A stretch of DNA of 63,609 nucleotides, counting the filler, from Dugesia japonica (lineage: Eukaryota): assembly GCA_001938525.1 (NCBI GenBank). It is 6 parts of 6 records of this genome, joined end to end, with 100 filler letters (N's around TTAATTAATTAA, not from the genome) between each part and the next. Parts side by side here need not be neighbours in the genome. Positions count along the whole stretch, not along the records: positions 1 to 12,439 come from MQRL01634631.1; 5 more parts are not named here. One strand, written 5' to 3'. Made by a program: the position numbers and the translations under genes. Under the pieces are notes generated by a model that was not told where the DNA came from, ran no database searches, and worked only from the letters and a program-made list of their open reading frames with translations. Below, one piece after another: positions 2,790-56,684 of the stretch (the first letter of the stretch is position 1; every line of letters starts with the position of its first letter).

Positions 2790-5080
2790 ATGAATACAAA
2801 TACTATGAATGAAAACCTAATGCAAGGAATAATCAATGAAGTAATTTTAATTTATTTATTAATTTAATTNNNNNNNNNNNNNNNNNNNNNNNNNNNNNNN
2901 NNNNNNNNNNNNNNNNNNNTGAAAATTATGGGAATAATAAGAGAAGAATAATTACAACGATTAACGATGATTATATTCGAATATCAAATTTTAATTAATC
3001 ATTTGTCAGTCTTCCAGTTAAAGGTTAAGAATTTGGAATTGAAATCGGTCCAAATTCCAGAAAATATGAGACATCAGGTCCAAGAAGAGGTCATGAAATT
3101 TAAAAATTGTAAAGTGCAATTTGGATTCCATGCAGAATTTGAAAAGAAGAATGGTGATAAAGAAGAGATTAAAGAATGGTCATAGTTGTACAAGGCAATG
3201 GATTACTAAGATGATTTTTTAGATAAATAATAGAAAAGGCAAATGCTGAAATTTCAATGTATTCAGAGCTCAACACTGAATAGAAAATAAAAAGAATATT
3301 AAAGCTACGATTTATTTTGACGAAATATGTTCCAGTAATTTATTTATCCGGTCGATCATACATTTCGAGTCCTCCAACATTACATAGATCCAGTACAATG
3401 GTGAATGTACACAATAAATGTTTTATTTATAGCATATTGGCGATACTTAAATACGATTTAATTAAAGATCATTGACGGAGGTCACAAAAATATAATAGCT
3501 TCCTAGATGAATTGGAATTTGATGAGCAGAAGATGCCAATGACTCATCAAAATTCCAGAATTTGAAAAGAAAATAATTTAACGATCCCATTATTTAAACA
3601 TAATCAAACTATTGATAAAGAAGAAAATGAAATTTTATATAAAAACCCATATGTCGAACAAAAAATCCAAATGGACACCCTATAATTTTACTGGTTTTGG
3701 AAAATGATCAAGAGTTTCATTATACTGTAGTAGTAAATTTTGATCGATTGCTGAATTTAAATGATCGAACACAGAAAATTCAAATTACAAAAAAATGGTG
3801 TATCAAGTGCTTACATGGTTTCAAGACTCAATCCACATTCGATCACCATGTTGTTCTATGTACATCAAATACTGAGAATACAAGTAGATAGATAGGAGGA
3901 CACCAGAACAAAGTAGGTCGAAGGGGTGGTCCCCGGTTGCCATGGCAACGGCGGACCCCCCCCTTCGACCTACTTTGTTCTGGTGTCCTCCTATCTATCT
4001 ACTAATACAAAATTAAATAAAATGCCAAAAGAAAAAGAATGGAAATTTAAAGATTACAGAAAAACAAAAACACCGACTTTCGTAATATATGCAGATATTG
4101 AAGCAATCCTTATACCAAAAGGAGATGGTAGTCTAGTAAAACATATGCCAATAGCTGCAGGGCTTTTATTGATTCCATTATTAGAATTAACAATGAAATC
4201 CAAGTACTATTCTTTTCAGGTGTAAACTTCCAGGTTAAGGTTTTATAATGTATTGATGAATTTTCAAAGAATGTAGTAGCTTCTTGGTATACGAAAAATA
4301 TGTTTACAGAAATGAACTTGACAACAACAGAACAAAATGACTTTACGAAAAGCATAAATTGCTACATGTGCGGAAGTAATAAACACGAGCTGGTTCGTGA
4401 TCATGATCACAATACTGGAAAATACCTCAGCGACATGCAATCAGATTAGAATCGAACATGATTAGAATCAAGTTACCTGTTGTGCTTCATAACTTTAAAG
4501 GTTATGATTCACATTACATTATCAAATATGTACTCAAACAATTTCCGCATTGGAATCTCAATCCAATTGCACAGAAAACTGAAAAACATTTGGCTATGTT
4601 AGCACATATTAGAAATGGTGTCACAATATTATTTATTGATTCATTCTACTTTCACAGTTCCAGTATATCATCGTTGACAAAAACCCTTGAAAGCTAGTCA
4701 ATGACATCAACTGAATTTATTTATGTTCAACAAAGCGAGGTTATATTCCCATACAAATTTGCAACTTCGTATGAAATGCTTATAAATAAAACCAAGTTAC
4801 CAGCACAATGGTTAAAAATAAATAGTGAAGAATATGAAATCGCAAAGTCAACATGGATAGAATCAAAAAGCAATAATTTGTTGGAATACATGATTTACTA
4901 TATGAAGCTAGATATATACTTGTTTGCCGATGTATTTCAAACATTTCGCAAAAAGGCACTTGAAAAACATGGATCGGAGCCGTTACGATTTGTTTCATTG
5001 CCAGGATTGAGTTGTTCAAGTGCTCTCAAGTCGATGGATAGACCAATAGAATTACTCCAAAATGCTGAAATGCATCGTCT
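2790..5080 (+). pseudogene. Protein-primed family B DNA polymerase (Maverick/Polinton type), N-terminal and exonuclease half
   Basis: Ordered motifs across frames: WCIKCLHGF..HVVLC, FVIYADIEAIL (Exo I), CYMC..VRDHDHNTGKYL (EndoVII-like), PVVLHNFKGYDSHYII (Exo II), FIDS, FPYKF, YMKLDIYLFADVFQTFR (Exo III), SLPGLS. Many stops and frameshifts. Confidence 0.9.
3883..4003. mobile_element. 121-bp hairpin mini-element, AGTAG...CTACT termini, 6-bp TSD
   Basis: 44-bp perfect terminal inverted repeat (3883-3926 with 3960-4003), near-palindromic to the centre; AATACA duplicated at 3877-3882 and 4004-4009; interrupts the pPolB coding sequence. Confidence 0.92.
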
Positions 5081-5198
5081 NNNNNNNNNNNNNNNNNNNN
5101 NNNNNNNNNNNNNNNNNNNNNNNNNNNNNNNNNNNNNNNNNNNNNNNNNNNNNNNNNNNNNNNNNNNNNNNNNNNNNNNNNNNNNNNNNNNNNNNNNT

Positions 5199-6258
5199 CA
5201 CATTCATATGCTTCCTCATATTCATCGTTTGTATTAATATCTTCTTCTTCAATCGCATGTACTCGATTATACCGGTTTTTTGATCTATCTCCAGTCAGAA
5301 ATTTCTCACTTTTTCATTTTCAAATTTGTGTAGGACTCTTCTTCCCTATGTTCACCATTAACACATCGTTTACACCTCACTTCTTGACATAACCTTATAA
5401 TATGGCCAACCTTTCCACAACCAAAACATTTTGTTGGTTTTTTATTTGGACAATCTCTACTTATATGTCCTGTTTTATGACAACTCCGACACTCTACCAC
5501 TTTTTTTATCGGACAATTTGCTTTAGTATGACACATTTTTATGACATTACTAACATTCAATCTTTTGTTTTTCCTTTCTTTGATCCACATGTCTATTCAC
5601 TGTAGGATTTCAATGTTTTCTGATAATTTCGACTTGTAAGCCTCGTGTAACTTCTAACTGCATAAACTTTATCTCTGTTTTCTCTACTCGATCTACTAAC
5701 GTATTTGTTTCTTTAATTTCTTTTATATTCTCTCGTTTCCGCAACGTCACTTCTTTTTCAACTTTTTTGTTATCTGAACAATATAATAGCTTCTTCGCAA
5801 CCATTTTTTCCTTAGTAAAATCTTTATTTGTAAATAATCTTTTAACTAAATCTTTTACATTTTTAAAATAAACTTGAATCTCTTCATTTCCACGCCTGTA
5901 GTTAATCAAATTTAGAAAATCTTAGATGACATCTTTCTCTTTCTCAAATGCAATACATAAACGAGCCTGAAAACCTTCAACTTTTTTCAACGTCTTTGCA
6001 TATTNNNNNNNNNNNNNNNNNNNNNNNNNNNNNNNNNNNNNNNNNNNNNNNNNNTTTCAACGTCTTTGCATATTCTTCCAACAAATCTTCATCTAACAAA
6101 CAAGAGACTAATCTTTTCTGTTGTTTCATATGGGTAATATTTTTAGTCTCAAAATGCAATTCGCACTGCTTGAGAAATTTCTCAATATCATCTCCTCTGC
6201 AGAACACATTTGGCAATAACCTATCTGTAATAGAATCAGTATTTACCACTGCCACCAT
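5199..6258 (-). pseudogene. Ty3/Gypsy-like gag with multiple CCHC zinc knuckles
   Basis: ORFs 5977-6258, 5610-5909 and 5306-5590 in series; CRSCHKTGHISRDC, CFGCGKVGHIIRLC and CKRC..GEH knuckles; N-terminus F.RGDDIEKFLKQCE. Confidence 0.8.
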
Positions 6259-8107
6259 GTTAGGTAAATCATCAATTGATAATCTATTTTCAAAATCACA
6301 ACTATTTTTAGACTTAATTTATTTCAATTCACACAGCTATCTTACTCATATTATCATATTAATATACAATTAAATCGCTTTCTTTTGGCTAAAATGATTA
6401 ATTAATAATTATTTCCTTATAATATTATTTATTATTATTTTTTATATAATAACTTGTTTACCCACGCGCAATATTTGTTTAAGTGGAGTCAGAATAATTC
6501 CTTGTTGGATATCTTCGCCTACGAGAATCTAACAGATAGAAGGACTTGGATCAAAGGAGTACGAGCATGCACTCGAACTACGGGTTGCGAGTCACCAGCT
6601 TTATTCCGAAAATCTAGACTTTGGACTTTAGATCAAATTCTTCGTGAGGTTTTGCTAGGCTATGTTATCCTAGATATTAATTAAATTTGAGCTGCTTAAA
6701 TGGAACTCTTGAAAAATATTTGAAAACATTGAAAATTGAAGATATAATTTTCTAATTATCAAGACATTAAAATTTAGAAATTTGTTAAGATATCTAAATT
6801 TGTGGTGCTCAGAATTCCATACATTTATATCTTCTTTTCCAATAATTTCACCATTACATGAAATTCTCTTATTGATCTTTCAATTCTTGTTACTTATAAC
6901 ACATTATTAAAGAAGATTTGATAATTCCTAACTTGATACTTGAACAATATCATTTCCTCTACCACTTATAACTGTTAGATATTGAATAATGTAAAGATCC
7001 ATTTCATTGCTTAATGAAGAAATAAATCTTTTCCATTTATTCCAGTTTTCAGGAAGTGTGATTTCATGAGGCAATAATATATTATCAGTAACCCTCGTAG
7101 CTCCGTCATACTTTTCTTTAGTATGGCAAATATCTAATACTGATGTTGCTGTAAAACACCTATACAATAAATTCTAAAAAGCACAGATATACAATTTAAC
7201 AAAATTGGACTGAAATAATAAATTAATTTAAAAATAACCAAATAAATTAAACAAGTCAATAAATTAAGAAAAATAGGTCAAAATAAAAAAGGCAAATCAT
7301 GTTAATTAATAGAATAGACTTAATTAAATAATAAATAAAATAGATAAGACAATTTATTTAAGAAAAAAAATTATTATTTTTAATTAAGAATTAATTGTGC
7401 TTTGATCCAAGGTAAAGCTATATCTTTATAACAAAGATTCATAAAAATTATTTAGAACGGAAATTAGCAATTTAAGCTTAAGATAAAACAGTTTCTGAAA
7501 GAAAAGGTTCTAAAACCTTCTCTAAAAGAATCTAAAGTGGCATTAAAAATCATACAATAAGATCACACCAACAAAAATTGTATGATGTACAATAACCAAT
7601 TGGATAGGGTCTTGTGACCATAGGACCAATGAGAAACCAGAAAATTATATTTTTGAAAAGATTAACCAACAAGGTAATAGTAAGCATGTTCCTAGACCCT
7701 AAAATATTCTGTCAAACTATTTCATTAAAAAAATTTATCTTCTCAAAAACATTTCTAAAAATAGATTGTCGTTTGCGAGATTGTTTTTTTAAAAAACGGA
7801 GCTAAATTTTTTGTAAACTGAGCTGAAGTTTACTTTAAAACTTTTGTAAAATAATTTGTAAATAAATGGAATTAAATTACTTAAAAATGTGTGTAATAAA
7901 TATGAAATTTTTACTTAATCAAATTTTTTAATTTATAATTTGTAATAAATTTATACTTTAAAAATTATATATACAGTCAACTCCGGTTATAGCGAAGTCG
8001 TATTATCCAAGAAAATAACTTCGCTATAACCGAAGTTGTCAAAATCGACTCGAATAAAATTTTTATTAAAGATTCATTAAATTAAACAATCAATTTAACA
8101 ATATTAC

Positions 8108-10296
8108 CGTAAGGATTAAAAATTGAAAATCGGATTTTAAAGTTTGAAGAAAATGTTATAAAAGATTTCAAGAATTTTTTAAAATATTTAAAATGTTTGT
8201 TTAAATATTNNNNNNNNNNNNNNNNNNNNNNNNNNNNNNNNNNNNNNNNNNNNNNNNNNNNNNNNNNNNNNNNNNNNNNNNNNNNNNNNNNNNNNNNNNN
8301 NNNNNNNNNNNNNNNNNNNNNNNNNNNNNNNNNNNNNNNNNNNNNNNNNNNNNNNNNNNNNNNNNNNNNNNNNNNNNNNNNNNNNNNNNNNNAACCTGAG
8401 AAGCTTCCTCGGAATATGCAAATATTACAGAATATTCATCAAGAATTATTCAAAGAAATCAAGAGCTCTAGAAGAATTGTGTGGAAGTAACAGCATGAAG
8501 CTAATAAAGTCAGATGGATGTGAGAAAGCTTTCGCAGAAATGAAACAAGCACAGATAGAAGCACCTATCTTAGGATTTCCTGATATACAGAAGACATTTA
8601 TTTTAGATACTGACGCCAGCTTCGACTCAATAGGAGCGGTCCTATCACAAAATGAAGATGATGGAAGAGAAAGAGTTATTGCTTACGGCTCACATGCAAT
8701 GATATCACATGAGAAGAGTTACTGTGTCACACGGAAGGAATTACTAGCAATCTACTACTTCTGCAACCACTTTAAACATTATTTATATGGAAAAAACTTC
8801 ATAACGAGAACAGATCCCAAGGCCATCGTATTCATGAAAAAACCAATAACACCTCAATTCCAGACATGGATAAATTACCTTAGCAGCTTAGACATGAAAT
8901 TAATATATATACAAGGCGAAAAACACACAAACGCAAATATGCTCTCAAAAATGAAATGCGGAACGTGCCCTCAATGTCAAATGTAATATGAAAATCCAAA
9001 GATGGGGAAGATGAAAACAAGACAGATAAATCAGATGATAAAGATAGAGAGATGTAAATGGCAAGAANNNNNNNNNNNNNNNNNNNNNNNNNNNNNNNNN
9101 NNNNNNNNNNNNNNNNNNNNNNNNNNNNNNNNNNNNNNNNNNNNNNNNNNNNNNNNNNNNNNNNNNNNNNNNNNNNNNNNNNNAAGAGATACATACATTG
9201 TTAATACATGCAGGGACAGAGAAAATGATCAGCTATATAATCAGCAACTCCGACATGAAAGAACTGAAAAAGACAATAACAGAAGTGATAAGACAGTGTG
9301 AAGCGTACCAAAAGAACAAAATTAATACGGTGGCAACAAAAGAGACAACAGTAAAATTAAGCGCAGATTGTTCATTTGAAAAGATAAATGTGGACATATG
9401 TGGACCTTTTCGAGAGACTGTGAACAAACGAAGATATATACGTGGAATAATAGACCAATAAAGTCGATACGTAAGCCTAACGGCAATCAGCAAGCATGAT
9501 GCTGAGATAATTAAAAAAGTGATAATGGAAAAATGGATCCTGAGATTCGGAGCACCAAGATAAGTTCACGCAGACAGTGGTAAGACATTTTAATCGAAAA
9601 ACTTCAAGAATCTGATGGAATTGATGAATATAGAAATAGGTTTTTCAATTCCATACCATAACAATACAAACGGAATTATAGAGAGACAATTCCGCATAAT
9701 TAGAGACTGTATTAACACAGCTGCAGATAGAAGAAAGGATTTGGGTTACAGGATACTGGAGATTGAATACATGATGAATGCAGCAAGGCAAAAGACATTG
9801 GGGATATCACCAGCAGAATTAGTATTCAGTAGGAGAATTCACAGAGAACAATGGTTTGACAGCGAAAACGATGAAAAAGAGTTAATGGAAGAAACACCTA
9901 CAAAAAGACAATTTCAAGTTGGATACGAAGTATTGATTAAACTAGAAACTAGAACAAAAGACAATGGAAGATACGCTGGTCCATACAAGATCACGGATAC
10001 GGTACATGAGAGAAGATTTCGTATACGAAATACAAAGGGAAAAGAGCTAGAAAGCAACGTAGAAAAGCTTAAAAAAATTCTTTTAATCGAGGGGGGTGTA
10101 AGGATAAAAAATTGAAAATCGCAATTTAAATTTTGAAGAAAACTTTATAAAATATTTCAAGAATTTTTTATAATATTTAAAAGTGTTTGTTTAAAAACAT
10201 AGTTTTTTGGAAGATTTGAAGATTTGAAATTTTGTGTTATAAATAAAAATTTATTGAATTTAATGGACTTTTCAGAAAGTTTATCAGTAACTAACA
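8108..10296 (+). mobile_element. Ty3/Gypsy LTR retrotransposon, internally deleted or gapped, 5-bp TSD
   Basis: 5' LTR from 8108 (CGTAAGGATTAAAAATTG, runs into gap); 3' LTR 10097-10296 (TGTAAGG...AACA) preceded by polypurine tract GAGGGGGG; ATTAC duplicated at 8103-8107 and 10297-10301. Confidence 0.9.
8393..10090 (+). pseudogene. Gypsy pol remnant: RT connection/RNase H and integrase
   Basis: FILDTDAS..IGAVLSQ...VIAYGS...YCVTRKELLAI...YLYG..F..RTD (RNase H); HAG...C..Y (Zn finger remnant); FEKINVDICGPF, FGAP..HADSG, PYHNNTNGIIERQFR (DDE); GPY motif. Confidence 0.9.
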
Positions 10297-13213: not shown

Positions 13214-14221
13214 NNNNNNNNNNNNNNNNNNNNNNNNNNNNNNNNNNNNNNNNNNNNNNNNNNNNNNNNNNNNNNNNNNNNNNNNNNNNNNNNNNNNNNN
13301 NNNNNNNTTATTATTATTATTATTATTATTAATATTATTTAGGATGTCATCTATAATTACGCAAATATAAGAAAATTAGACCGTTTTTGGATAGACGCTA
13401 CTGATGCTAAAAAAGAAGGTCGTTGGAAAAACGTAGATGAGAAAAATTTAGAATATACGTATGGAAAATTATTTTTAACAAATTTCACGTGAATTTTTAA
13501 TCCAGAAATTGGAAACCCGGAAAACCAACTACTGATGCCAAAATAAATTGTGCTTACATGACGGGAAGTTCGGAAACATTTTGGGACGTAGTTAACTGTG
13601 AATATAATTTAATGGTTATATGCTACTATGAAATTGAACCACCAGAAGTAACAAGTAAAAATATAACAAATATAATTTTTTTTAATGTCATAATATATTA
13701 AATCAATGATTCAAATATTTTCTTTCATTTTAAATAATTAAAGTCGAATTATTTTAGTAAGCCTAGATACGAAAAAACTAGTTATTCTTCCCGATTTTGC
13801 TACCTATCATATGGCTATTGATATTTGTAAATCGTTGGGCATGAATTTGACAAAAATAACAGATGTGAACATAAACGTTAGATAATAGTTGTATTTATTG
13901 AAATTTAATAATTGATGTTCAGGAAATCGTCCATGCATACATTCGAGAGAGAACGAAGAGTAAATTTTGGATTGATGGAAATGATTTAGATGTGCCTGGC
14001 CAATATTTGTATAATGATGGGACTAGGATGACGTTTACGTAAGTGAATAGTTTTTTTAAAAAATAAATTAATCCCAAATAAAAATTTACTATAGTAAATT
14101 TCCAATGGGTGATGCTTCAAAGTCAATAAAAGATCATTGTATTGTCGGATCAAAACAATTGGATGGCTGGTGGGGACATGCCATATGCACATATCCAAAT
14201 AGAGTAGTTTGCTATCAATAA
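12992..14221 (+). CDS. C-type lectin protein with two CTLDs, multi-exon (5' end uncertain, gap inside)
   Basis: Spliced reading FWIDATDAKKEGRW..YT/NWKPGKP..NCAY..FWDVVNC..VIC, then AIDICKSLGMNL/FWIDGNDLDVPGQYLYNDG/DHCIV..GWWGHAIC..VVCYQ*. GT-AG introns mostly about 46-57 bp; stop TAA 14219-14221. Confidence 0.82.
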
Positions 14222-14859: not shown

Positions 14860-15620
14860 CTAGGGTTAATGAGTATATGTAGCTTATGAGTATATTATTT
14901 GCATAGTTACCTTGTATTATTTACATAGTAACCATGTAATATAGGGCTTATGAGTATAAAGAGTTTATACAGAATATGAGAGTATAAGGCTTTAATGTGT
15001 GTGGAACGTTTCCATATATAATTTAAAATTACTGTATAAATATCTTATAAGTGAATTATTTTATGAATATTTAGGGTTTATGAGTATCCTATTTACATAA
15101 TAACCGTGTATTATAAAGTTTATGAGTGCATATTTACATAGTTACCCTGTATTATAGAGTTTATGAGTATATTATTTGCATAGTTACCTTGTATTATTTA
15201 CATGTAACAGTTTATTATAAGGTTTATATTATTCACATATTAACCGTGTAATATAATGTTTACGAGTATATTATTTGCTTAGGTATCATGTTATATTTAC
15301 ATAACAATCGTTTAATATATTGATTTTTGTGTGTATTATTTGCATAACAATCGTGTAATATAAGGTGTATATGAGAAACATTCACATATATAACCTCAAA
15401 TTACTGTAAAAAATACATTATAATTAAATATTTTTGACTGTATAGGGGTTATGTTTGTATTATTTACATAGCATCCATGAAATATATGGTTTATCATGGT
15501 ATAATTTGGATAGTTACCTTGTATTATTTACATAGCAACCATGTATTACATGGTTTATTAGTATATAGGATTTATGAATGTGGATCATTTTCATATTTAT
15601 AACTTAAAATTACAGTATTA
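14860..15620 (+). repeat. Left arm of long inverted repeat built from tandem subunits
   Basis: Repeats of TTTATGAGTATATTATTTGCATAGTTACCTTGTATTATTTACATAGYAACC; about 15138-15310 is the near-exact reverse complement of about 16700-16870. Confidence 0.85.
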
Positions 15621-16654: not shown

Positions 16655-17155
16655 CATCATAAGCCTTATATTACACAGTTGCTATGAAAATAATTAAAAG
16701 GTTGTTTTGTAAATATTACATGATACCTAAGCAAATAATATACCCATAAACATTATATTACACGGTTAATATGTGAATAATATAAACCTTATAATAAACT
16801 GTTGCATGTAAATAATACAAGGTAACTATGCAAATAATATACTCATAAATCCTATAATACAAGGTTACTATGAATTAATACACCCAGTATCCTTATAATA
16901 CTGGGTTGCTATGTAAATAATACAAGGTAACTATATAAATAATACAAGGTAAATCTGCACATAATACACTCATAAACCTTATTATACGCGGTTGCTATGT
17001 AAATAATACAAGGTAACTATGAAAATAATATATTCATAAACCCTATAATACAGGTCTACTATGTATTAATACAGCCATAATCCTTATAATACTGGGTTGC
17101 TATGTAAAAAATACAAGGTAACTATATAAATAATACAAGGTAAATATGCATATAA
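16655..17155 (-). repeat. Right arm of long inverted repeat
   Basis: Repeats of GGTTGCTATGTAAATAATACAAGGTAACTAT, reverse complement of the left-arm units. Confidence 0.85.
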
Positions 17156-17164: not shown

Positions 17165-17790
17165 TCCTCATACTCCTAAAATAAAATGAGGTTAAATCAA
17201 GATGAATACAACAAAGCGGTTGAAATTTGGAAAATTACAATTTATAAAAACCTATTAGACTATTAGTTGTTATATCTTAAGTCGGAAGTTTTCATTTTAA
17301 CCAACCTTTGCAAACAGTTTAGATCAAATTCATTAGTGCATAATAATTTAGTACTATTGATATTTTTCGGTATTCCTGGTATTGCATTGGCATCTGCCTT
17401 AATGACCCTTAATAAATCCATTCAGTTGCTGAAAGATTACGATATGTAAATCTTTTTAATCAGAGGACTGAATTTTGTCAATAAACATCATGCCGTTAGT
17501 GATAAAAATACTGAACCTTTGTATATAGATATAAATAATTTATATGGTTGAGCATTAATCCCCAAATTACTTTACAAATATTTTCAGTGGATTCATTCTA
17601 ATTTAGAGATAGTGTTGAACAATGTAAAACCATGGATATGGAGTTATTATCATACAGATATGCATCGGAAGTGGACGTGATAATTCCTGATGAGCTTAAC
17701 GATTACAATGAAAATATATCAATAAATCACTTAGAATGAGACAATAAACCATCAGTAGGTAACGTTAAAATTCCAAATGTTGCCTTGACA
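17165..17790 (+). pseudogene. pPolB fragment (Exo III to polymerase motif A)
   Basis: NLLDY*LLYLKSEVFILTNLCKQFR..FFGIPGIALASAL..IQLL..IRG..FVNKH..LYIDINNLYG*AL..L.YKYFQW; collinear with 4870-5080 and 57300-57620. Confidence 0.85.
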
Positions 17791-22079: not shown

Positions 22080-23300
22080 TTCTTTATCAGTGAAGAATTC
22101 TCTATCAAATCCTACTTAGATTATTAAATTTGGATGAAAATTAGAAAAACTAATTTTTTATTTGTGTCGGTTAAGCATTAGTGGCATTTTAAACCATGTT
22201 TTTTCAAGTTTTCTCCATAAATTTTTTTCTAAACAATTTAAGAATTACTTGGAGAGAGTGTTGTATGAGGCATTAATGATTAGATTTCATAATCCAAGCA
22301 TTAATGTACAGGCAGCTCTTTCGACTGAATTGATTAAAAATTTTTAATTTTTTTGGATAATAAATAATTTTTCAATTTTTTTTTGAAATCTTAATTTATT
22401 TTCAAATAATTTTTTATTAGTTTTCTATTTCATTTTTTGATATAAATTTCAATTTTCATAGGTTTTGAAAAAATTTTAATATAATCTAAAATTNNNNNNN
22501 NNNNNNNNNNNNNNNNNNNNNNNNNNNNNNNNNNNNNNNNNNNTTCTTTATCAGTGAAGAATTCTCTATCAAATCCTACTTAGATTATTAAATTTGGATG
22601 AAAATTAGAAAAACTAACTTTTTATTTGTGTCGGTTAAGCATTAGTGGTATTTTTAACCATGTTTTTTCAAGTTTTCTCCATAAATTTTTTTCTAAGCAA
22701 TTTAAGAATTACTTGGAGAGAGTGTTGTATGAGGCGTTAATGATTAGATTTCATAATCCAAGCATTAATGTACAGGCAGCTCTTTCGACTGAATTGATTA
22801 AAAAAATTTAATTTTTTTGGATATTAAATAATTTTTCAATTTTTTTTGAAATCTTAATTTATTTTCAAATAATTTTTTAATGGTTTTCTATTTCATTTTT
22901 TGATATAAATTTCAATTTTCATAGGTTTTGAAAAAATTTTAATATAATCTAAAATTNNNNNNNNNNNNNNNNNNNNNNNNNNNNNNNNNNNNNNNNNNNN
23001 NNNNNNAATTTCAATTTTCATAGGTTTTGAAAAAATTTTAATATAATCTAAAATTAAAAAATTTAAATATTTTGGAAAAATATCTTTGATTTTAAAGGTA
23101 ACAGTAATAAAATATTATTATATAAATTAATTTTCTATTGAAAAATTGTTAAAAAATTTAGAAAATTAAGAATTATACCCGTCTTATATTCAGTATAATC
23201 GCATTAATCTTTGTTTGAATAATACAGACTGAATAAACTCATTTTTTCATTTTTGTCTGATGATGACACCTGGTTAATCCGTCGAAATATATAACAATAG
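22080..23300 (+). mobile_element. Penelope-like element 3' remnant in tandem copies
   Basis: Near-identical ~413-bp units (22080-22493, 22544-22956, partial 23007-23055) encoding LERVLYEALMIRFHNPSINVQ, the GIY-YIG C-terminal E.L.I...P.LN motif, followed by a hammerhead. Confidence 0.7.
23253..23297 (+). ncRNA. Minimal type I hammerhead ribozyme
   Basis: TTGT-CTGATGA-T-GAC-[13 nt]-GTC-GAAA-TATAT-A-ACAA: stem I TTGT/ACAA, stem II GAC/GTC, palindromic stem III ATATAT; predicted cleavage after A23293. Confidence 0.75.
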
Positions 23301-25546: not shown

Positions 25547-28500
25547 ATGTTTATGTCCGAGGTCAACTATACGTCAATGGAATCTTCGCCACAGGAGGAA
25601 ATTTCAAACTCTGATGTGGAGAATGTTGCTATGAGTCCAGACAATAATCGAATTGATGTCGTCAATGTTGAACAGTCGCCATTTGATGATCGATCGTCTA
25701 TTAAAAGTGGCAGAAATGGAGATTGTACTCGCAGCTGGACAATGGCAAAAGTTCAAGTTGGATATGATATCACTCGTAAGGGTAAATGACAATTGATTTT
25801 ATTACATCTGGATATGTAAAGAATTTTAGGTGAACGAAGTTTAGTAGTAGACGGTTTCAAATTTACAAAATCCAGGGATGGTACAAATAATCGAGTTTTT
25901 TGGCGATGTTCACGAAGAGAATGTAAAGCTACTGCTGTCACTGTCTGTGATCGGGTAGAACACGTTAGAGCCATTCATGCTCATGAACCTCCTTTGGCTG
26001 CTGAATTTTTTGGTAGTCAAGAAGGTGTATCTCAAAGATGTCAGCTGCAAGAAGTTCGATTTAATACCAGTGCAGCAAATATGCGGCCAAGATATCGTAG
26101 ATCAACAGTGTCTGGGTCAGAAGGTAACACAGAAGATGTATCAAACGTAAAAGACATTTCTAATTCAAATACTGTCAGTTGTGACGTGAAACCTGTTATA
26201 AGTCAAGTAAGTTCAAATATTTGTTAACATTATTTTGAAATTAAATTTTAGAACATAGCACAATCCAAACCATTATTACGTTTGGTTTCAGCTCAACCGG
26301 TCTTCCAGATTAACAATAATAACACTGAAACAAAAGCTGTGTATCCTACATGTAATGGTTTACAGAGAACTCCGTCAGTCAAAGAACAAGTTCGAGATTT
26401 TATTTTACGAAATTCAAATGCTCAGTCATCATCAAATCAGGCAGATAACAACAATGTATCAGTTGCTCAATTTCTCATTTCTCCCGCTTCCCAAACTACT
26501 CAATTTATTCAAACCAATACAACCCCAGTTTCATCAAATAGTACGACTGGTTCAACAATATTCAATTTCAGTACAATGCAGATCAACGCGTCTCCAAATG
26601 CAGGATCAGACTCTACTAGTGATGCGCCAAGTCATAAATCAACACCAGGACTCATGTAAGTAACACTGATAAACGTAACGCAAACATTAATTTGTTATGT
26701 CTCAAATCAACGAAACGACTATCTGTGTAGTTAATGATTACCATTTTGTTCGTTAACCAACTACTACTGACTCACAAAACCACGTGATGAGATATGCTAG
26801 CTAACATTATTAGATCTGTCACTGTGTTGCGTTGTGACCTGACCTGGTGAGGCTGATTACTGTGATGATTGTGTGTATTTGCGTGTGTGTGCCAGTAATT
26901 GCCTAGTTGTTGCCACCACCGCTTACTAAAATTGTTGAAACACCCCTCATTTTCGGACGACTACAGCACTAGTATCCAGATGGGGGACACTGACACAGAT
27001 AATAATAATAATACTAATAATGTCGATTATGATGTTTTGGACAATTGTATTGAATCAATTGATTTCTTTCTTGACAACGAACTGTTGCTGTTGTCAACTG
27101 CAATGTTAAAATTTATTAAATGATATACAAGAGATTGTGACTGGAATAATAATAATAAATAATAATTATTACTATATTTATTATTATTAATAAAAAAGAT
27201 AATAATAAAATACTCTTTATTAATATTTTGTATGAATAATTCTTTNNNNNNNNNNNNNNNNNNNNNNNNNNNNNNNNNNNNNNNNNNNNNNNNNNNNNNN
27301 NNNNNNNNNNNNNNNNNNNNNNNNNNNNNNNNNNNNNNNNNNNNNNNNNNNNNNNNNNNNNNNNNNNNNNNNNNNNNNNNNNNNNNNNNNNNNNNNNNNN
27401 NNNNNNNNNNNNNNNNNNNNNNNNNNNNNNNNNNNNNNNNNNNNNNNNNNNNNNNNNNNNNNNNNNNNNNNNNNNNATGAGAAGCAGAAAAATAAATTTC
27501 AATTAATCAGAGTCGACTTGTTGAGCTGATTTGTTTATGGGTAAAATGGTGCCAGTTTAGCAGATGATGATTTTATCATGATTTCTATTGGATGAAAATA
27601 AATAAATTATTTAAATAGAAATATGAATCCTGTGTAAATTGAGTTTTAACTAATTCATTCCAATTATTAACAGTTTGATACAATGAAAAATAGTTGGATT
27701 GTTGGAAAAATGTTGATAATTTGCAAACAGAAAACTGACTGGTTGTTGTTACGTAATCAGATTAACATTTATTATTAAACTGTTTTGAAATGTTGACAAA
27801 TTTAATTTCTATTCGACTCAATTAGAAGAGATTCCTAAAAATGATTCTTTATAAATTTACCAGCTTATAAAACTATATTATTATTATGATGTTATTATTA
27901 TTAATATATTATTGATATTGATATATTTTTATTTTATTATTTTTATTTTATTATTATTATTTTTCATTTAAAATAAAATTTTTGATTGAAGCTTTTATAT
28001 TAAATGAATTCTATAAAACGATCAATAGTTTATGTCCAACAATTATTGTCGCAATTATTGCAATTGTAAAATTATTATTTTTATTATATTATTTTTATTA
28101 TTATATTATTTTTATTATTATATTATTTTTATTATTATATTATTTTTATTATATTATTTTTATTATTATATTATTTTTATTATTATAATATTATTATTAT
28201 TAATGTTATTTTTATTATATTATTTACAATTCTATTTTATTATTATATTATTATTATTAATATTTTATTTTTATTATTAATGTTTTATTATATTATTTTT
28301 ATAATATTTTTAGAATTCATTTAAAATAAAAGCTTCAATCAAAATTTTGGTTTTTGATAACAATTTTGATTAATAATTACGTCCAACAATTATTCTCGCA
28401 AAATTGTAATTGTAAAATTTATATTATTATTAATATTTTATTATTATTTCATTATTATTAATATTATTATTATTTGTATTATTATATTAGAAATATGCCG

Positions 28501-29649: not shown

Positions 29650-30752
29650 TAGAAAAAGTAGCAGCGTATATGAAGCATAAATATAACCTGAAATATTTGT
29701 GGAGCAAAGTACAAGAGGTTGTCTAAAGTTGTATAAAATGGCAAAAAGCTAAATTGTTGACAACAAAAACGAAGGAATAAACAAAGTTTGAACTGTTACT
29801 TATAGATGCGTGTGGACCACTGTCGGAGACAAGAGGTCGAAAGAAATATGTTTTCAGTATAATAGACCCATGCAGTAAGTATGTAGCCTTGATAGCAATG
29901 ACGAGACAAGATGAAGATACCATACGGAAAGCAATATTTGAGAAGTAGATAATCAAGTCTGGGTTTTCGAGAGTAATTCGAGTTGATTGTGGAAGAGATT
30001 TTGAGTCTAAATCAATGAAAGATTTTGCTGCTGAATATGAAATTAACCTCAGGTTTTCGAGTTTATAGTATCGTAACACAAATAGAAAAATCGAAAGGCA
30101 GTTTAGAACTATGCGGGAAATGATTAATGAAATGCCTGAAGAAATGAAAACTTCAGATTGGGCAGACATATTGCTAGATATAAAATTTAAAATTAACGCT
30201 ACAAAACAGAAAACTATTTGGAAAAGCTCTCCTGAAATCGTATTTACGAGGAGAATTAATGTAGAAAAATGTTAAGAAACAGATACTTAAAGAGTGCACA
30301 AAGAGCAAAACAAAGAGAAACAAGCCAAAGGACAATTTAAGGTTGATGATGAGATCGAAACAATGATGAAAGTTGAAACAAGTAACTAAATCAAAGATCG
30401 ATTTAAAGGGCCACATAAGTCCAAGTGGAAAGTTCACGACAGACGTTACATTCAGGAAGATAAAAGTGGAAAGAATTCTCGAAATAACTGAAGAGAAGAT
30501 TAAAAACTTATTTAAAAAGAGGCATGTGGAAAAAGCAGATTTAAATATTTTGTATTTTGAAACGGAATTTTTTAAAATCAGATTTGTTAAATATTTGGAT
30601 TAAATCATTAAAATAATTTGTAAAATAAATTTTAAAGTTTATTTGTGTACAGAAAGCGAAAATATAATTTATAATTTGTGTTCAATATAAAATTTTTAAT
30701 TTTTATAATTTTATTATAATGTATAAAATTATAAAACTTCTGATTTTCAACA
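29650..30752 (+). mobile_element. Gypsy integrase remnant plus probable 3' LTR (about 30525-30752)
   Basis: FELLLIDACGPLSETRGRKKYVFSIID..SKYVAL, RVDCGRDFES, NTNRKIERQFRT; related to 9184-10090. Purine tract then TG...AACA. Confidence 0.8.
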
Positions 30753-32795: not shown

Positions 32796-35700
32796 TCAAA
32801 ACTAGACGATTTCGCGAAATTATACAATGTTATTCAAATGGAAAGAAATAAATGTGCTAATCTTATAAATTCTGTCACTCACAAAAGTTCAGAAATGAGA
32901 GAGAAAATAAGAATTCTTAGTAATGAAATTGAAATTCTCAGAACAAATTTAACCCAGAAAGAAAAATACGTACAAAAACAAAGAACCAAGTTGACTGAAA
33001 TGATTTCCTTACGGGACTCTTTGCAATCAGACATTTCCAAAAAAGTGATTTTTTAATCTTATATATCCTATTATTTTGTCTATTAAAAGAATATTATTGT
33101 GGCAAAACGAAAAGAAAGACGTGATCAAATTCAATTGGATATACAAAGACTTAATCATTTAGGAAATCAAGCTGAAGAAGCGATGGTTTCTTTGAGAAAA
33201 CAGAATGATTTGGCTTTGCAAAATAGGAATGATAGAGCTGTGCAACTTATCGAACGAAATGAAGAATTATGTATTCTTCAGGTAATCATTATTTTATTCT
33301 TATTTATTTATTTCAACCACTAGGAAAAGTTTAATATAAAAGAAGAAATAATAAGAGCAAGCGAAAAAGAAACCCAAATCGGTATTGACGAAATAGAGTT
33401 TTTGAAACAAAACATTAAAGAATTGAAGCGACAAAATAAATTGCTTAGAAACAAATTAGATAATAAAATCAAGTTAGAAAGAGAAGCAATAAACTTAAAA
33501 ATTCAAGTAAAATTTTCTATTTTAAATCATAACTATATAAATAAGTAAAGAGATGCATACACACTGGGTCACCTGTGAATGAAATTGATTCTATTATGTA
33601 ATTAATACACACATAATAAGCATGGCATTTGACCTATTACATGATCATCTTCATGGAACTCGATATTGCATAAAGCAAAACACAATTGCCATGTTGCACA
33701 TATATAACCATTATTATTATCATTATAATAATTATTATTATCATTGTCATTATCAATTTTATTTTATGATTATTATTTTTTAACAAATGGATATTACCTA
33801 TCAAATATTTTAACACCACAAATGCATATTTCTTAATATTTTTATCATTATAAATAAATCTAAATTCATTGTACTTTATAAAATAACAATAAATATGTCT
33901 ATATTTATTAAAATATACATTATCAATAAATAAAAAATGACAAATATATAACTACATTTATTTCAGCATATAAATACAAAATCATCTTCGTCTTCTTCTT
34001 TGATAAATTGAGGTCAATAAAACATAGCGACTGTATACTTAATTAATTATTAATTTTATAATGACCATATGCTATGTTAGTATTTCTTCCACTCCAAAAC
34101 GTTTACCATCCAGGCATGATAACACACATTTCATATTTTCTATTGTGTAAACTTGAAAATTTATTAATTGCAAGCTAGTCTACATAACCTTGTTTGTTTT
34201 CATTTCTTCTTGTTCTTCATCTTTATTGTACGCATTTACATAGTTTTGATTATTGACATCTGTTTGTTTTCAACTGATTAATTTCGCCTTCATTGTCATA
34301 CCAGCATTTTCTTTCTTCAAACTATAATATTTTGGTCTTAGAAATACCCATTCAGTATAATTGTCACCTTGTCCTTCCTCGTTAGACAATCATATTCTGT
34401 TGGCTACAATACTGGAATAGTTTGAATTTTCTTATAGATAACTTATTGTATTCAACAATCTATCCAATTTCATTTATCAAGAGTTGTTTTTTTTATCTAT
34501 TCCTGTACATGATACGAAAAAACTATCCATATCCCAGCAATAATATCATAATTTACAGTGAAATCGTTGACGATATTTTTCAAGTTCTTTATATTGAAGC
34601 CTGTACATTTGCAATTGACTCAAATCCAGTACTATCTGGCCAAAATGACTTGGTCTTTTGAGACATATAGTGTTTTTGCCCAGTAAGAAAGCCTGTGATA
34701 TTCATTGTTTTCTTAAANATTACTTTGCTAGTGTAAGTTAAGAATTTGTTCTTATTGTTACATATCCAGAATTGCTTGCGTTTCTTCAAATTCTCCACTG
34801 TCTTGCCATATAGCTCATTATTTAACAGTTTGTAAAAGTCTTTTACAAATTTGGATTTTGATTCTGCTCTAGATCAATCGAACAAAAATTTTGAATCTAT
34901 CAAGCAATCTAATAATAATTGGATGTTTGGTATCAAAAAAGATACTTGTTCGATAATCATATTTAGTTTTCGTTAGTTCACACATCCTTATCGAACCATT
35001 TTATTTCTGACTATTACTAAAGGTGAATTCAACGAGCTTTTACATTTGTTAGCTACACAAATATTTATTACATTCTCTATCAATATTATTTTCGAAGTGC
35101 ATTGGTTATATCTGGGAATGCTGAAAGGTTGGGTTTCCAATACTTTTATTTGATGCACGAATGTTTTGTGTGTTGAATATCAAATTCAGAAGCCATATAT
35201 ATTCAACCAAATTTCGTAATTAGATAAAATATATCTTTGTTATTGGCTTTTTTAAAAACATTAGAATCATAATTCTTTTTATCGTAGTTAGAGTGATTTT
35301 TCCCCAGACATTCAGCTTCAATATTTGAATTTTAACTACAATCAGTTTTATTCCGAAATTATTTATTACATCAATTTTACCAATTAATTATGATCGTATC
35401 TTTTTAACTATTATAATTTTGATAATTTTAACTTTATTCTTTGTTTAGCGCTCATTGCTACACATCCAAACGGTCTCTCTGCACTGCTCGAAAGCACATT
35501 CGTTTAATACAACATTGAATCATTACAAGGAGGGTTTCACTACTTTCATCCAGTACTCTTCGCTCATAACTGTAATTGATACTCCGGAATGTCATCGGAT
35601 TTCTAATTTTATTTTATTCACTTCCACTCCGCGCTACTCTTTTTCGTCTTCATTCTCATAGATATTTCTTCTATGTTCAGCATTTCTATTCGATCTGTCC

Positions 35701-38700
35701 ATTAACGTGCTAAATTCTTTGACAAAATGTTCGCTATAAGGTTGTCCTAGATTTTCTCATTGACAATATCACGCGTTACAAAACTCTTATCTTCGTCCGT
35801 TTGTACCTCTTACATCTTGATTTCATTAAATTTTATACATCAATTTCATTTAGTAATTTTCAAATCTTCATAAATTTGTTAAGTAATTTATCAATTTTGT
35901 TTAAACATACTAATATAACCAAATTCAACAAAAGTTGGACTAATTCCATTATTTTATATACTATTTTCTTAAAGTTATACAAGTATGCATACATTTTCTA
36001 AGTAATATATTAATTTAAATAGGCCATACACATATTTCTTTAACAAACAGGAATTTCATTAAATTGTGTAATTAATTTCATATAGATATAACCAAATTTC
36101 AATAAAATAATATCAATTTTATACAAAATTCATTAAATCACACAACAATTTCATTAAATATTGTACAAATTACATTGAAAAGGTGGCGTAGGAAGGATGG
36201 TAGTGGTTGCCCCGGGTGACATTTTTGTTTCTATTTATTAAAAAAGCGGGATGAATTCCTTAGATCAATTTTATCGTGATACCGGTTTCATAATTGTTTA
36301 AAAAATATTCCTCTTTCATTTTTTTCAAACAATAAAAAATGCACCGAATTAAATCAATTTTCATGACATTGTATGAAAAGTTTCAGCAATAACAAAGAGA
36401 AAGCGACTCACAAGTCAAAATTAAAAAATATGTTGGTGTATCGGACATTCGTTTTCGAGAACTGTTTGTTTTCATTATCACTGCAATCGGATTATTTATT
36501 TTTATTGTGTGTGTCCTAATGCTGTTCTCAATTTTAGTTATATTCTCAGCGCAAGATAATAATACTATTTTATATTTTAGTGTATTATGTATAATCAATT
36601 GTTTTGTTTTTAAAATTCAAATTTTTAATATGCAGTGAAAATTCTAGTTATTTGTATTATATGAAATTTACGTATTAAAAATAAATATTAAAAACGTATT
36701 ATATTATCAATATTAGCGAGAACAAACAAAAATATTCATCATATTATATAAAGGCGACAAAGTTATTCAGATCGAGTGATCTCATCCCCATTTGTGGCTT
36801 ATAAGAACTTATATCGTACGCTCTCTTCCGTAAAGAAAATGTTATATTGCTTTACTTTTGGTTTTAACAAATTTCTTGATAAAAAACGAAATCCTTTAGT
36901 ATATTTTGGTTAATTAGAAACATTACCAAACTATGGTGCAAAAAGACATTCTGTAAATATTAAGCATAAAAGTAATTTGTTTGTTTAATCTATATATTTT
37001 TATTAATTTTAATATTGATGTCTTCATTATTATTCCATTACTCTATATCAAGATAAATCGAAAAAATTAAAGTGATGTTGCGTTTAGAAAAATAGAAGGC
37101 TAGAGAGACGGGGTTAAAAACTGATAATTACTTGAAAATTGCTTGAGCTTTAGAACAGTTAATTGATGAAGAATAATATACAACTACCAGGTCAGGTGTT
37201 GGTGTACTGCTAGTTGCACTACAATCTTTTCATTTCNNNNNNNNNNNNNNNNNNNNAGTAACCGTCCTTCTGGAAATTAACGACACAAACCTATCTTCAA
37301 ACCAAAAGATGTTTTTAAAAATGTTTTTATTTAACCGGGAAGACTTGGTAACTAATTTAGTAACCTTTAACAAAGAAATGTGCAATGATATGGAAATAGT
37401 TATGGATGTGAAACTAGAAAACGAATGGCTAGTGAAAAATCACAGAATTTTGGATTGCCATACGAAATTGAGTTGAGACAAGAAATGTTTTCCGCGTTGG
37501 AGAATATGATTCAAGAAAATACTTTGAGATTTCGACAGCTCTACTTTCTTGATGAGAAATATGCTTTCCTTACACCGTCGAATCATTTAAAGGAAAAATG
37601 TTAGTGTCTTGATGATTATGATGATATTGATCAGGAGGAATTTCTCGAAGAGAAAAAAATATTGCAACATTTTATTGCTGTTACTGCTAAGCAAGATAAA
37701 ACAGAAATATAGGTGGAAGGTACTTATGAAATTTTGCAGTTTATTCAAAATTATCGTCTCAGTAATTCAGTACTAAATATTGCTATAATCTTGCGAATTA
37801 TCCTTACTATTGCTGCTGTTTGTGTAGCTAATTTTGAGAGGAGTATCTGAAAATTAAAATTAATCAAAAATCATTTAAAATCTACTATGAATAGCTTGTG
37901 GTTAGAAAATTTTGCCATATTCTCTATATGGACACCAGCTGAGAGAGAAGATATACTTCGACGATGTTTTCGATGATTTNNNNNNNNNNNNNNNNNNNNN
38001 NNNNNNNNNNNNNNNNNNNNNNNNNNNNNNNCTTTTTTATATTTTTGCATAAATTAATTTTATTTTCATTATAAATTTTGTATTTCTTTTAGTTTTTAAA
38101 TTTTTTGCTTTAAATAATTTTACCTAAAATAACTAAATACATTTCAATAAAATATTTTTAAAAAGTAAATAAATTTTTTACAATTTTGACCTTTTATACA
38201 TATAAATCATATATTTGATTGATAAGGGCGCAAATTATTTGGACCGTCTCAAGCGGAATATACCCTCGCAACATCACTACATTGAAATATACATAAATTT
38301 CATTAAAATATACAAACTTCATTATTATATACAATTTTTTAAAATAGTTTACTAAACATAAAAATTTTATATATATACTAGGTTCATTAAATTATATCTA
38401 AATTTCAATAAGTAATATAACAATTTTATTAAAACATACAAATTTCAGTCATTTTTACTGAATTTATAAAAATAATTAAAGCAATTAATTAAAATCCATG
38501 CATCAAATTCATTACGTATTGTACTAATTTCATTAAAATGTGTTAATTTTATTAGAATATGTACATGATTCATACAATTATATACATATTTTAATCTCCT
38601 TCAGATTTTCATTCTTGACCTTCTTTATAAGCAAATCAATTCACGATTTCATCATTACCTAATCCTGAATTGAGTATACAGTTTACTAAATTCCTTACTC

Positions 38701-51480: not shown

Positions 51481-51649
51481 ACGTCACGGCGGGGGGAGGG
51501 CACTTACTGATTAAGTGCGTGGTGCAAACCCCTACTATCCATCTACTTATGTTTAAAAACTTTAAAAAAGGAGTGGAAAGAAGCTGCGAATGATGAACAG
51601 AAAAGGGATATTATTATAAACAAATAAATGGTGTGTATTATTTTAATAA

Positions 51650-51975
51650 ATAAACTTTAAATTACAAAGAAGCATTCCGATTTTACAGCTTTGATTAAAT
51701 CATCAAAACCTTTTAGAATGAGAATTTTATAATCATTACCATCAAGTGTTATAAATGATTTACTTGAAATTATTATAAATATTGTTCGTGGTGATGTAGA
51801 TTTGAGTGCAGCCAAAAAGAAAACATTGAAAAAACATTAAAAAAAACTTTATTAACGCTTGTAAACACAAAAAAACAGAAAATCAATGAAACGAATAATG
51901 AATAATCAAGGTGGTGGTTTTATAGCAGCATTGTTTCCAATTGCATTAGTGGCATTAGGCTTAATTCATTTCAAA
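51650..51975 (+). pseudogene. Polinton conserved basic core-protein-like gene (pVII-like)
   Basis: DLLEIIINIVRGDVDL..KKKTLKKH...NQGGGFIAALFPI matches the N.L.GN..L...K..L.KHK...Q.GGF..LL pattern. Confidence 0.7.
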
Positions 51976-52075
51976 NNNNNNNNNNNNNNNNNNNNNNNNN
52001 NNNNNNNNNNNNNNNNNNNTTAATTAATTAANNNNNNNNNNNNNNNNNNNNNNNNNNNNNNNNNNNNNNNNNNNN
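51976..52075. other. Artificial scaffold spacer
   Basis: N44, TTAATTAATTAA (52020-52031), N44. Confidence 0.97.
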
Positions 52076-52483
52076 ATTGGAGCAAAAGATTCAGACAAGG
52101 TGATGTTATTGTTGTTGATCATCTGTATCAAAAGGCAAATAAAGAAAAAGATTTCAATAATTTATTCACAAAGATATCAAGACATCGTAATGTGACTGAT
52201 ATTTATTATTCAAAATTTATTTCATCAAGATAGAAGTAATAGAACTCGCTATTTAAATGTACAATACTTGGTTCTATTCAAAAATCTTAGAGATCAAGCT
52301 GTTGTTGATTTTCTAGTAAAACAAGCATATCCAAATAACAGACAATAGCTTATTGAATAGTTTCAAGATGCAACAAAAACTCGTCATGGAGAACTATTTC
52401 TCGACTTCACTCAACAATGTCCAGATAACTATAGAGTAAGAACTGATATATTTATTCCAAATGGAATTACGGAGTATAAATAA
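52076..52483 (+). pseudogene. Polinton A32-like packaging ATPase, C-terminal half
   Basis: VIVVDHL (Walker B), LFTKISRHRNV, QNLF, LNVQYLVLFKNLRD, DATK..HG.LFLDF..YRVRTDIF. Confidence 0.88.
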
Positions 52484-52764
52484 AATAGGTAATTTTCTTA
52501 ATATTATATAAAATGACAAAACTTAAGAAAATTGTAGTTGATTCAGTTACTGATGTCAATGTTAAAGAACGAAAAAAAGCCTGCTGTTAAGAAAAAGACG
52601 AAACAATCTTTTAAGGAAAAATCACATAAGAGGCAGTCACATAAGAAAACTTATGAAAAAAAGAAAAAGTAATTGAAAAAGTTTTTAAAACTTGCAAAAA
52701 GTCGCGGAAAGAAACTAAAAATGTTGAATAGAAAATGTATATAATTTTAAACAATTTGTTGGTA

Positions 52765-53112
52765 TGTATGTTTTATTGAAATAAAAACGAAATTAGAAAG
52801 AAGTATTCCGTTTTTACTGCGTAGATTAAATCATTAAGATTTCTAGAATTCTAGAATGAAAATTTTGCAATCATTTTAAATAATTATTGATGATTTACTT
52901 GAGATTATTGTAAATATTCTTTGTGGTAATGTAAATTTGCGGAACGCTAAAAAGGATGTATTGAAAAAACATAAAAAAATATTATTAGCGCTTGTTAATA
53001 CAAAAAATAGGAAATTAATGAGACAATTAATAATGAATAATCAACGAGGTGACTTTATAGCAGCATTACTACCAATTACATTAGCAGTATTAGGATCAAC
53101 CCATTTCAAATA
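52765..53112 (+). pseudogene. Second copy of pVII-like core protein gene
   Basis: DDLLEIIVNILCGNVNL..KKDVLKKHKK...NNQRGDFIAALLPI; clearly similar to 51650-51975 at DNA level. Confidence 0.75.
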
Positions 53113-53334
53113 AAAATGGTTGATTCATATCAATATATTAAATAAACAATATAAGAATTGCAATCATTACCTAATTTTGACATGAAATTTGCATCAAATT
53201 GTTGTAATAAGAAAACTAAAGACAATATGGACGGATCCAAAAATTCGATTTGTAAAAAAATTGATGAAAGCAGCTCAAAAAATGAAAAAATAAACAAAGA
53301 AATGATTATCGGCTTAACTAGCATACAGTCTGAA

Positions 53335-53790
53335 CAAGCCAATGTAGAAAAGATTTCCAACAAGAGCATATAAAACATATGGTTTTGATGATTTATGGCA
53401 AATGGATCGAATGGAGATGATTCAAAAATTAATAAAGGGATACGTATATTTTGACATGTATCGATGTATTTAGTAGATTTGTAAGAGCTGTTACAGTTAA
53501 ATCACAATCTGCTAATGATATGGAACCAGCAATCAAGTCATGTTTAAAAATGGACATCCAGATAGTTAACAAACAGATTTGAGTAAGGAATTTTTTAATT
53601 CCAAAGTGAAACAACTTATTAATTATCTAAAAATAAAGCATTATAATATATTCTCACAGTATACAGCTGCACATGTAGAGAGATTAACCGTATATCGAGA
53701 GATGCATTAGAAGATATTAGAGAGATGTACCAACTTTCTAAATGTTGGTAATAAGACTGGGATAAATGTTTTTACCGAAGCTTATTCATA
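53335..53790 (+). pseudogene. Polinton retroviral-like integrase
   Basis: RFPTR.Y..YGFDDLWQMD, ILTCIDVFSRF, QTDLSKEFFN, AAHVERL. Confidence 0.88.
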
Positions 53791-54339
53791 GTTATATTCA
53801 TTCTGGTCATTTCTCGGGAGTGCAGACCCCTACACACGTAGTTTAGGTTCATTATGCTAGAGCGATAAGAGCCTTATAATTGATCAACGTTACCCTTAAA
53901 AAATAAGTACAACCTCTTATGGAAATCGTTTATTGATACAAAACAAAATAATAGACGTCGTATCAGTGCATAACACAATAAAGTTTATATTAGCAATAAT
54001 TTCAATAGTTTATCATATCGATTAATTCTTCTTCTGTTACGCCTTGAAATAATTGATTCGATTTCACATTCTAGTGGTGAGTATTCAGCATATTTTTATT
54101 TAGAGTATCACCATTAGTTTGCGCATATGAACTCAATTTATTTGAAATGTTTTCTTTTCTGTTAACAATTTTTCTTTTTGATATAAATCAATATTTGTGG
54201 ATTTTATTCGTGAATTAATAAGAATCGTTTATTCTTTCCACATATAAATCTGTTACATTTGTGGATTGTTTTTATTCTATATTCAATATAATTAATCTAT
54301 TGTATTTCGAAATATTTTTTTACTTGTATTTTATTTGTC

Positions 54340-54840
54340 AATTTCAACTGAATAAATTTCTTAAGAGGTTTGGATATGATTCTAGAATATCGTAAAGGTG
54401 AATTACACAATAGATCTGATGCTCTATCAAGATGAAATATAGAAAATTGCAAACAGTGCCAGATGGCCCACCAAGATACAAAAACAGAAAGACAAAGATC
54501 TTAGCAATTGAAAATATAAAATATGAAAATAAATTACATAGCAAATGTAAAGAAATTAATTCAATAAAATTAGTAATCAATAAAAAACCAGATAGAAAAT
54601 TTTTTATAAATAAAAAAGTTTTTAGCCAGAAAAACTAAATATATATTCTTGAAGAAAGCAAGCAGAAATTTTTTTAGAAACACACAAATAGTTGTATCAT
54701 GCAGGGAATAATAAACTCATGAATAATATTTCTGGATCATATGATTTTACAAATATCAACAAAACTATCCCAGATATTATAAAAAGTGGCGACTTTTGTC
54801 AAAAACGTAAATCATTGACATGCACAACAAAAAAATAATT
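54340..54840 (+). pseudogene. Gypsy RNase H end and integrase Zn-finger remnant
   Basis: GELHNRSDALSR..NCKQCQM, HAG, CQKRK; related to 8850-9350. Confidence 0.65.
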
Positions 54841-54959
54841 ATTAAAATAATGCACATGGTTAAAATTTTGGTTAAAACCCATAAATTGCTTATACTATTT
54901 TGTGGATTTATTATAAACTATTATCCATTAAATTGAAATTTTGATTAAATAATGGAAAA

Positions 54960-55865: not shown

Positions 55866-55869
55866 ATAG

Positions 55870-56257: not shown

Positions 56258-56684
56258 GAGTCATGATCATTCACAACTTAATGTAAACTATGAATATCAC
56301 ATATTAAGCGTAACCCGAGATGTGAAAAATCCGTACCTTTCATGTCAATTCTTTTTCACACTTTAAATTAAACAATTGAATTTTTTATTATTTTTTTTAA
56401 TCGCGAGAATTCAAATGTTACTGTTTTTTAGTGAATTTTTACACATGAGCCGGAAACTTTCACACTTTATTATAAACTCGGCTACTTTTTTAAAAATCCT
56501 TTGCGTGGTATTTTACTCATTCGAAAAGTGAAGCATGAACTTTCACACTTTATTGTCAACTATGACTCTTACTCATCTTGCATGAAAATTTTATAACGAG
56601 AAATCCATTATCAAAATATCAACTTTAAAAATATAATATCAAAAAAAATAAATTTTTATACATATAACAAATATCATATAATTC

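Follow-up and report, generated by a model that had tools for sequence, protein, structure and literature searches.

The window studied here, the whole stretch of DNA that was analysed, comprises 63,609 nucleotides (filler included) of the Dugesia japonica genome (GenBank assembly GCA_001938525.1). Near its beginning, a decayed Maverick pPolB is interrupted by a 121-bp near-palindromic insert flanked by two copies of a hexamer, and two further Maverick-type termini (A and B) lie elsewhere in the window. The features of the locus and the two comparator termini are as follows:

3105–5081, plus strand: the host, a decayed Maverick pPolB with an endonuclease VII-like domain (tblastn by natural pPolB-like proteins, and Pfam)
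3877–3882, no strand: left copy of the target-site duplication (TSD), 6 bp; natural pPolB homologues account for one copy only
3883–3926, plus strand: left terminal inverted repeat (TIR), 44 bp, perfect; its first 16 bp (3883–3898) are the core common to the other Maverick-type ends in the window
3927–3935, plus strand: left inner arm, GC-rich, unlike the right inner arm (arm alignment)
3936–3949, no strand: central perfect palindrome of 14 bp, the proposed junction of the parental ends (sequence and motif identity, PMC3414849)
3950–3959, minus strand: right inner arm, GC-rich, exceeding its left counterpart by one base (arm alignment)
3960–4003, minus strand: right TIR, 44 bp, perfect
4004–4009, no strand: right copy of the TSD, 6 bp
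51532–51547, minus strand: terminus A, the end of Maverick remnant A (about 42100–51547), 14/16 identical to the end of the mini-element; a comparator, not a parent
56242–56257, minus strand: terminus B, a second Maverick-type end, 14/16 identical to the end of the mini-element; a comparator, not a parent

The insert (3883–4003) is a 121-bp near-palindrome with a perfect 44-bp TIR at each end, as the original prediction had described it, and the inverted repeat as a whole extends imperfectly to about 60 bp. Its GC content is 54.5%, compared with 29% and 32% in the flanks. As single-stranded DNA it reaches a folding energy of -64 kcal/mol (z -19.7), and none of 200 shuffled sequences was equally stable. 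Of all perfect inverted repeats in the window whose arms close within 400 bp, it is the longest; the runner-up has 19 bp. Perfect inverted-repeat pairs of at least 11 bp within 3 kb number 520; only 15 of them are flanked by a direct repeat of at least 4 bp, and among these 15 an arm longer than 14 bp occurs only at the insert. The hairpin is real in the assembly, and chance is ruled out as its source. The 121 bp have no coding capacity and contain no pPolB, integrase, capsid, ATPase or protease sequence, and the whole window gave no Rfam match at the gathering score.

Between the TIRs and the centre the two arms differ at four of 61 alignment columns (one gap and three transversions), all of them within the nine columns next to the centre (P of about 0.006 under uniform placement). 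The earlier description of the insert as GC-rich and pristine is thus accurate for its composition, its TIRs and the TSD, but not for the inner arms. The clustering of the differences points to an asymmetry that was inherited, to repair at the unstable centre of the hairpin or to G/C runs misread in sequencing, rather than to evenly spread decay.

The interrupted pPolB carries several stops and frame changes and is cut at 5081 by an N gap in the assembly. Pfam matches to DNA_pol_B_2 and Endonuclease_7 were obtained for three of seven host pieces, below the curated cut-offs; the pPolB cut-off was passed by three of the six homologous proteins checked. The hexamers at 3877–3882 and 4004–4009 are identical (AATACA), and natural homologues were used to establish whether both belong to the host. 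A search with one host piece yielded 1880 relatives, the best 150 of which were used, and each unaltered flank was aligned separately to all 151 proteins; 39 aligned to both flanks. The gap was counted between the two flanks, with the first hexamer assigned to the left flank and the second left out of the right. A gap of 0 residues was the commonest value (11 of 39 proteins), a gap of 2 residues, expected if both hexamers are old, was found in three, other values from -3 to +5 in 20, and far outliers in five; among the rows listed, the six best left-flank E-values all give a gap of 0. With 0 residues as the commonest gap, one hexamer is extra and the duplication is a true TSD. The predicted exact 6-bp duplication and the predicted insertion inside a decayed pPolB were both borne out by these comparisons, the latter with Pfam matches below cut-off and tblastn cover of 3105–5081. 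Other pPolB copies in the window stop short of the insertion site.

The nesting implies that the insert postdates the sequence it interrupts, and in this sense it is younger than its host, as had been predicted; the comparison of decay is ambiguous. The host shows two stops in 424 aligned codons relative to one homologue and six in 541 relative to another; with 5.8% of substitutions creating a stop, this gives a hand estimate of about 2.7–6.4% decay. At that rate the chance of perfect TIR and TSD pairs (100 bases) is about 0.002–0.07. Counted as decay, however, the four arm differences in about 133 bases amount to about 3%, similar to the rough 3–6% of the host, in which case the insert need not be much younger than the pPolB around it.

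Allowing up to three mismatches, the terminal 16-mer of the insert recurs at just two places in the window, ending at 51547 (terminus A) and 56257 (terminus B), each identical at 14 of 16 positions. A first-order Markov simulation gave a mean of 0.03 such matches, and none of 200 simulations reached two. The insert has AG..CT termini with short repeats; its first six bases match (AGT)2 at five of six positions, and A and B deviate at the same position. Maverick traits include 6-bp TSDs and repeated end motifs starting with AG, such as (AGT)2 or (AG)3 (PMC8097293). The TIRs of intact vertebrate Mavericks span 46–1447 bp (PMC8097293), and those of the insert (44 bp perfect, about 60 bp imperfect) stand at the bottom edge of this range. 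A GC-rich box is located about 40–65 bp inside all three ends. The ends of the insert are thus very probably Maverick ends, as originally claimed. IS3EU and GingerRoot elements also produce 6-bp TSDs, but their termini are TA..TA or TG..CA (PMC10045372), and membership of the insert in either group was rejected. Taken with the very probable Maverick ends and the true TSD, the different termini (TA..TA or TG..CA) of those 6-bp-TSD superfamilies that could be checked make insertion by a Maverick integrase the best reading.

Past base 16, identity to ends A and B drops to 12–19 of 54 positions. Because the likeness stops after about 16 bp, A and B represent sister families and not the parent. An autonomous Maverick sharing the first 40 bp, which the original prediction had proposed to look for, is accordingly not within the window, nor was a parent Maverick with the full TIR of the insert found there. 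Terminus B lies about 370 bp from a C-terminal pPolB piece (pPolB cover 54948–55894), and its assignment as a Maverick end, based on the motif and this nearby piece, appears weaker than that of A. A partner end or TSD for either terminus was looked for in the window and not found. When the A and B termini were folded, 44 and 24 of 200 shuffles, respectively, were as stable, and the small subterminal hairpins there carry no weight.

Remnant A (about 42100–51547) is large and decayed, with one intact terminus, its other end being lost at the gap at 41999–42098. Its pPolB (48214–50414, tblastn cover) reads inward from the terminus on the minus strand, and subterminal tandem repeats occupy 50618–51235. 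An adenain-like protease at 44581–44859 has atlas scores of 0.90–0.93, with 14–28% of cluster members carrying a C5 or C48 peptidase family; at 43694–43951 the atlas leans to jelly-roll capsid clusters with low recognition (1321), a weak lead. The region 51548–58017 is a cluster of further Maverick pieces, in which 51552–51975 is 75% like 52683–53110, an integrase piece (rve, below cut-off) is located at 53436–53579, and terminus 56257 lies between pPolB pieces at 54948–55894 and 56648–58017. Isolated pPolB fragments were detected at 17165–17724 and 33992–34873, bringing the pPolB-like stretches in the window to six, and there are three cases of a Maverick within or adjoining another Maverick. 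Directly before the first of these fragments, the segment 14793–17156 has degenerate inverted arms (15090–15321 versus 16689–16919, 89%) composed of subrepeats of 22, 41 and 99 bp, some like X-box half sites; it may represent a fold-back element or else the subterminal region of a Maverick. Among 49 pieces submitted to Pfam there were five Maverick-type matches, all below cut-off, and one spurious match, and 21 pieces submitted to NCBIfam gave chance-level matches only.

The remainder of the window is mixed. A small hairpin with a perfect 15-bp arm (7984–8032) stands just before a Ty3/gypsy-like remnant at 8109–10195, in which an LTR-like direct repeat (8109–8205 and 10098–10195, 91%) encloses RT-RNase H (Pfam above cut-off) and integrase-like sequence; retroelement-like pieces were also recognised by eye near 5200–6370 and 29650–30500. 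At 25820–26660 lies what resembles a host gene, encoding a FLYWCH zinc finger (Pfam E 3.5e-9), an indication of an animal host. Two further regions we take to be spliced coiled-coil exons, CCDC146-like (32796–33548), and C-type-lectin-like exons (13340–14221). On the plus strand, 58300–62010 contains a long succession of AT-rich ORF pieces with a skew towards A; Pfam gave no convincing match for them, and the region is perhaps a decayed element. Gaps of 100 bp, in which a 12-base linker separates two blocks of 44 N, are found at 12440, 21015, 29550, 41999 and 51976, and 22080–22493 recurs at 22544–22956 (97%) across a gap, an assembly feature.

The perfect palindrome at the centre of the insert (3936–3949) exactly matches the classic palindromic X-box of RFX as printed in PMC3414849, and by sequence identity it is a candidate RFX site. 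The 14-mer has no other match in the window within two mismatches, and the degenerate X-box pattern has one, at 36206–36220 on the minus strand. Given a perfect central palindrome, the chance that its half-site fits the degenerate consensus is about 0.002, a post hoc figure, as sites of other factors would also have attracted notice. End A has an 8-mer at a similar distance from its terminus (51479–51486) that is presumably CRE/ATF-like, and host-factor sites in adenovirus ends are a parallel to such motifs.

The central X-box palindrome suggests how the element arose. On balance, we consider it somewhat probable that the insert is a non-autonomous, MITE-like miniature of a Maverick/Polinton, mobilised in trans. 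Its parent would have been a Maverick with the 14-bp palindrome 54–67 bp inside each end. Since a palindrome within both inverted ends is a direct repeat as well, a microhomology-mediated deletion or a template switch between its two copies would remove the interior and join left end, palindrome and right end. The birth of MITEs at microhomologies of 6–8 bp is documented (PMC3814204). Such a mini form may keep the terminal core for protein priming and integrase recognition, and as a single strand it would fold to a duplex end, like the racket-shaped single-strand intermediate proposed in a model of Polintons (PMC4196379) minus its loop. The pPolB and integrase of a helper Maverick could then copy and insert it in trans. 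As far as the sequence allows one to say, something with these ends entered an older Maverick pPolB and produced a 6-bp duplication, which is equally consistent with integration of a mini form or of a full-length parent. The clustered arm differences next to a perfect TIR and TSD fit an asymmetry inherited by a young copy.

A pattern search and blastn with 7-base words revealed no further copies of the insert in the window, where it is single-copy. Matches in a plasmid collection (four records) and a phage collection (three records) all had E of 1–4 over at most one third of the query, and GTDB contigs contained no exact match to the first 22 bases; these collections are without animal genomes and so are silent on copy number. 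A bolder version of the proposal would have the insert belong to a currently or recently amplifying family of Maverick satellites of about 120 bp, hairpins copied by helper pPolB and integrated in trans without packaging, which would define the minimal cis-acting unit of Maverick transposition and spread a perfect RFX site through the host genome. We regard this predicted family as rather unlikely.

The single copy is also what would be expected had a full-length Maverick integrated with its TSD and afterwards been emptied by a deletion reaching from one palindrome copy to the other, leaving a one-off scar that never moved, comparable to a solo LTR. This collapse in place is possible though less probable in our judgement; it explains ends, TSD and central junction just as well, Maverick pieces with internal truncations are frequent in the window, and Polinton remnants consisting of TIRs only are known in C. 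elegans (10.1101/2024.01.15.575659). Long perfect parental TIRs would, however, give a perfect palindrome, yet the four differences lie beside the centre with none in the TIR or TSD, so that a parent with short TIRs or later repair of the hairpin centre would be needed; we count this asymmetry only mildly against collapse. Moreover, one 64-kb window would be likelier to sample a multi-copy family than a one-off event.

It appears very improbable that the insert is a hairpin MITE from some other superfamily that makes 6-bp TSDs and whose ends look Maverick-like by chance. Fold-back MITEs are common (PMC1784062, PMC3814204), IS3EU and GingerRoot share the length of the TSD (PMC10045372), and the window holds no parent for the insert, but its AG..CT termini differ from the TA..TA or TG..CA reported for those two groups (PMC10045372), and its agreement at 14 of 16 positions with two ends associated with Mavericks far exceeds what chance would give. 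Just as improbable is an assembly artefact, be it a chimeric hairpin or a longer Maverick whose left and right ends were joined via the 14-bp palindrome. In its favour, the assembly is in fragments and contains numerous N gaps, and GC-rich hairpins are prone to sequencing error. On the other side, the insert shows no relation to its flanks, its TSD is genuine, and a single read could span its length; a 14-bp overlap would fall under usual assembly word sizes, a reflected path would be perfectly symmetric, and no meaningful plasmid or phage match was obtained (best E 1–4). Even if they had been merged, the ends would still be real Maverick ends.

Polintons have been characterised chiefly in silico (PMC10748475), and for the vertebrate elements spread has been argued mainly via virions with a constrained genome size (PMC8097293). 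If the trans-mobilised miniature proposed here proved to be a dispersed 121-bp family with 6-bp TSDs, a Maverick integrase, and perhaps pPolB, would act in trans on a substrate about 100 times smaller, and the cis requirements would be bounded to about 60 bp per end. The gene-based surveys of Mavericks consulted here require pPolB and integrase (PMC10748475, PMC8097293), and such mini copies are invisible to them. A single collapse scar would still represent a route for erasing Mavericks, although a far less important finding.

Non-autonomous Polintons and hairpin MITEs are already known, whereas neither a Maverick-derived MITE or hairpin nor a Maverick this small was found in the open literature searched, judged mostly from listings. 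Non-autonomous Polintons reportedly feature in the original descriptions of Polintons and Mavericks and in Repbase, and a short one may already be catalogued there. Such elements, denoted by "N1" in Repbase names, are probably much longer than the insert and are not known to be hairpins. Polinton-1N1_DR, a name that occurs in PMC9341505, resembles the proposed mini form in that these elements are presumed to be helper-dependent Polinton derivatives; in a study of the anole, non-autonomous copies are apparently absent (PMC3014272).

With Maverick/Polinton elements (Eupolintoviridae-type) the insert shares TIRs, a 6-bp TSD and, less exactly, ends of short repeats starting with AG (PMC10748475, PMC8097293), as well as the terminal 16-bp core common to the Maverick remnants in the same window. 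Autonomous members, in contrast, have 13–25 kb with pPolB, integrase, capsid proteins, ATPase and protease, none of which is present in the 121 bp, and their two ends are not fused at a palindrome. Polinton_CE_TIR of C. elegans likewise consists of Polinton end sequence without internal genes, but it is presented as 744-bp TIR pieces, remnants and direct repeats; so far as that account describes it, they do not form a hairpin of two ends flanked by a TSD (10.1101/2024.01.15.575659). Closest in form are Made1, an 80-bp MITE derived from Hsmar1, and the fold-back MITEs PALTA, Hairpin and Goblin, which are also near-perfect palindromes of barely two TIRs (PMC1784062); fold-back MITEs arise by microhomology-mediated deletion or template switching (PMC3814204), as is proposed for the insert. 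MITEs of the Made1 type, however, have cut-and-paste parents of the Tc1/mariner group and are proven multi-copy, whereas the insert, represented by one copy, would descend from a self-synthesising, virus-like class of parent.
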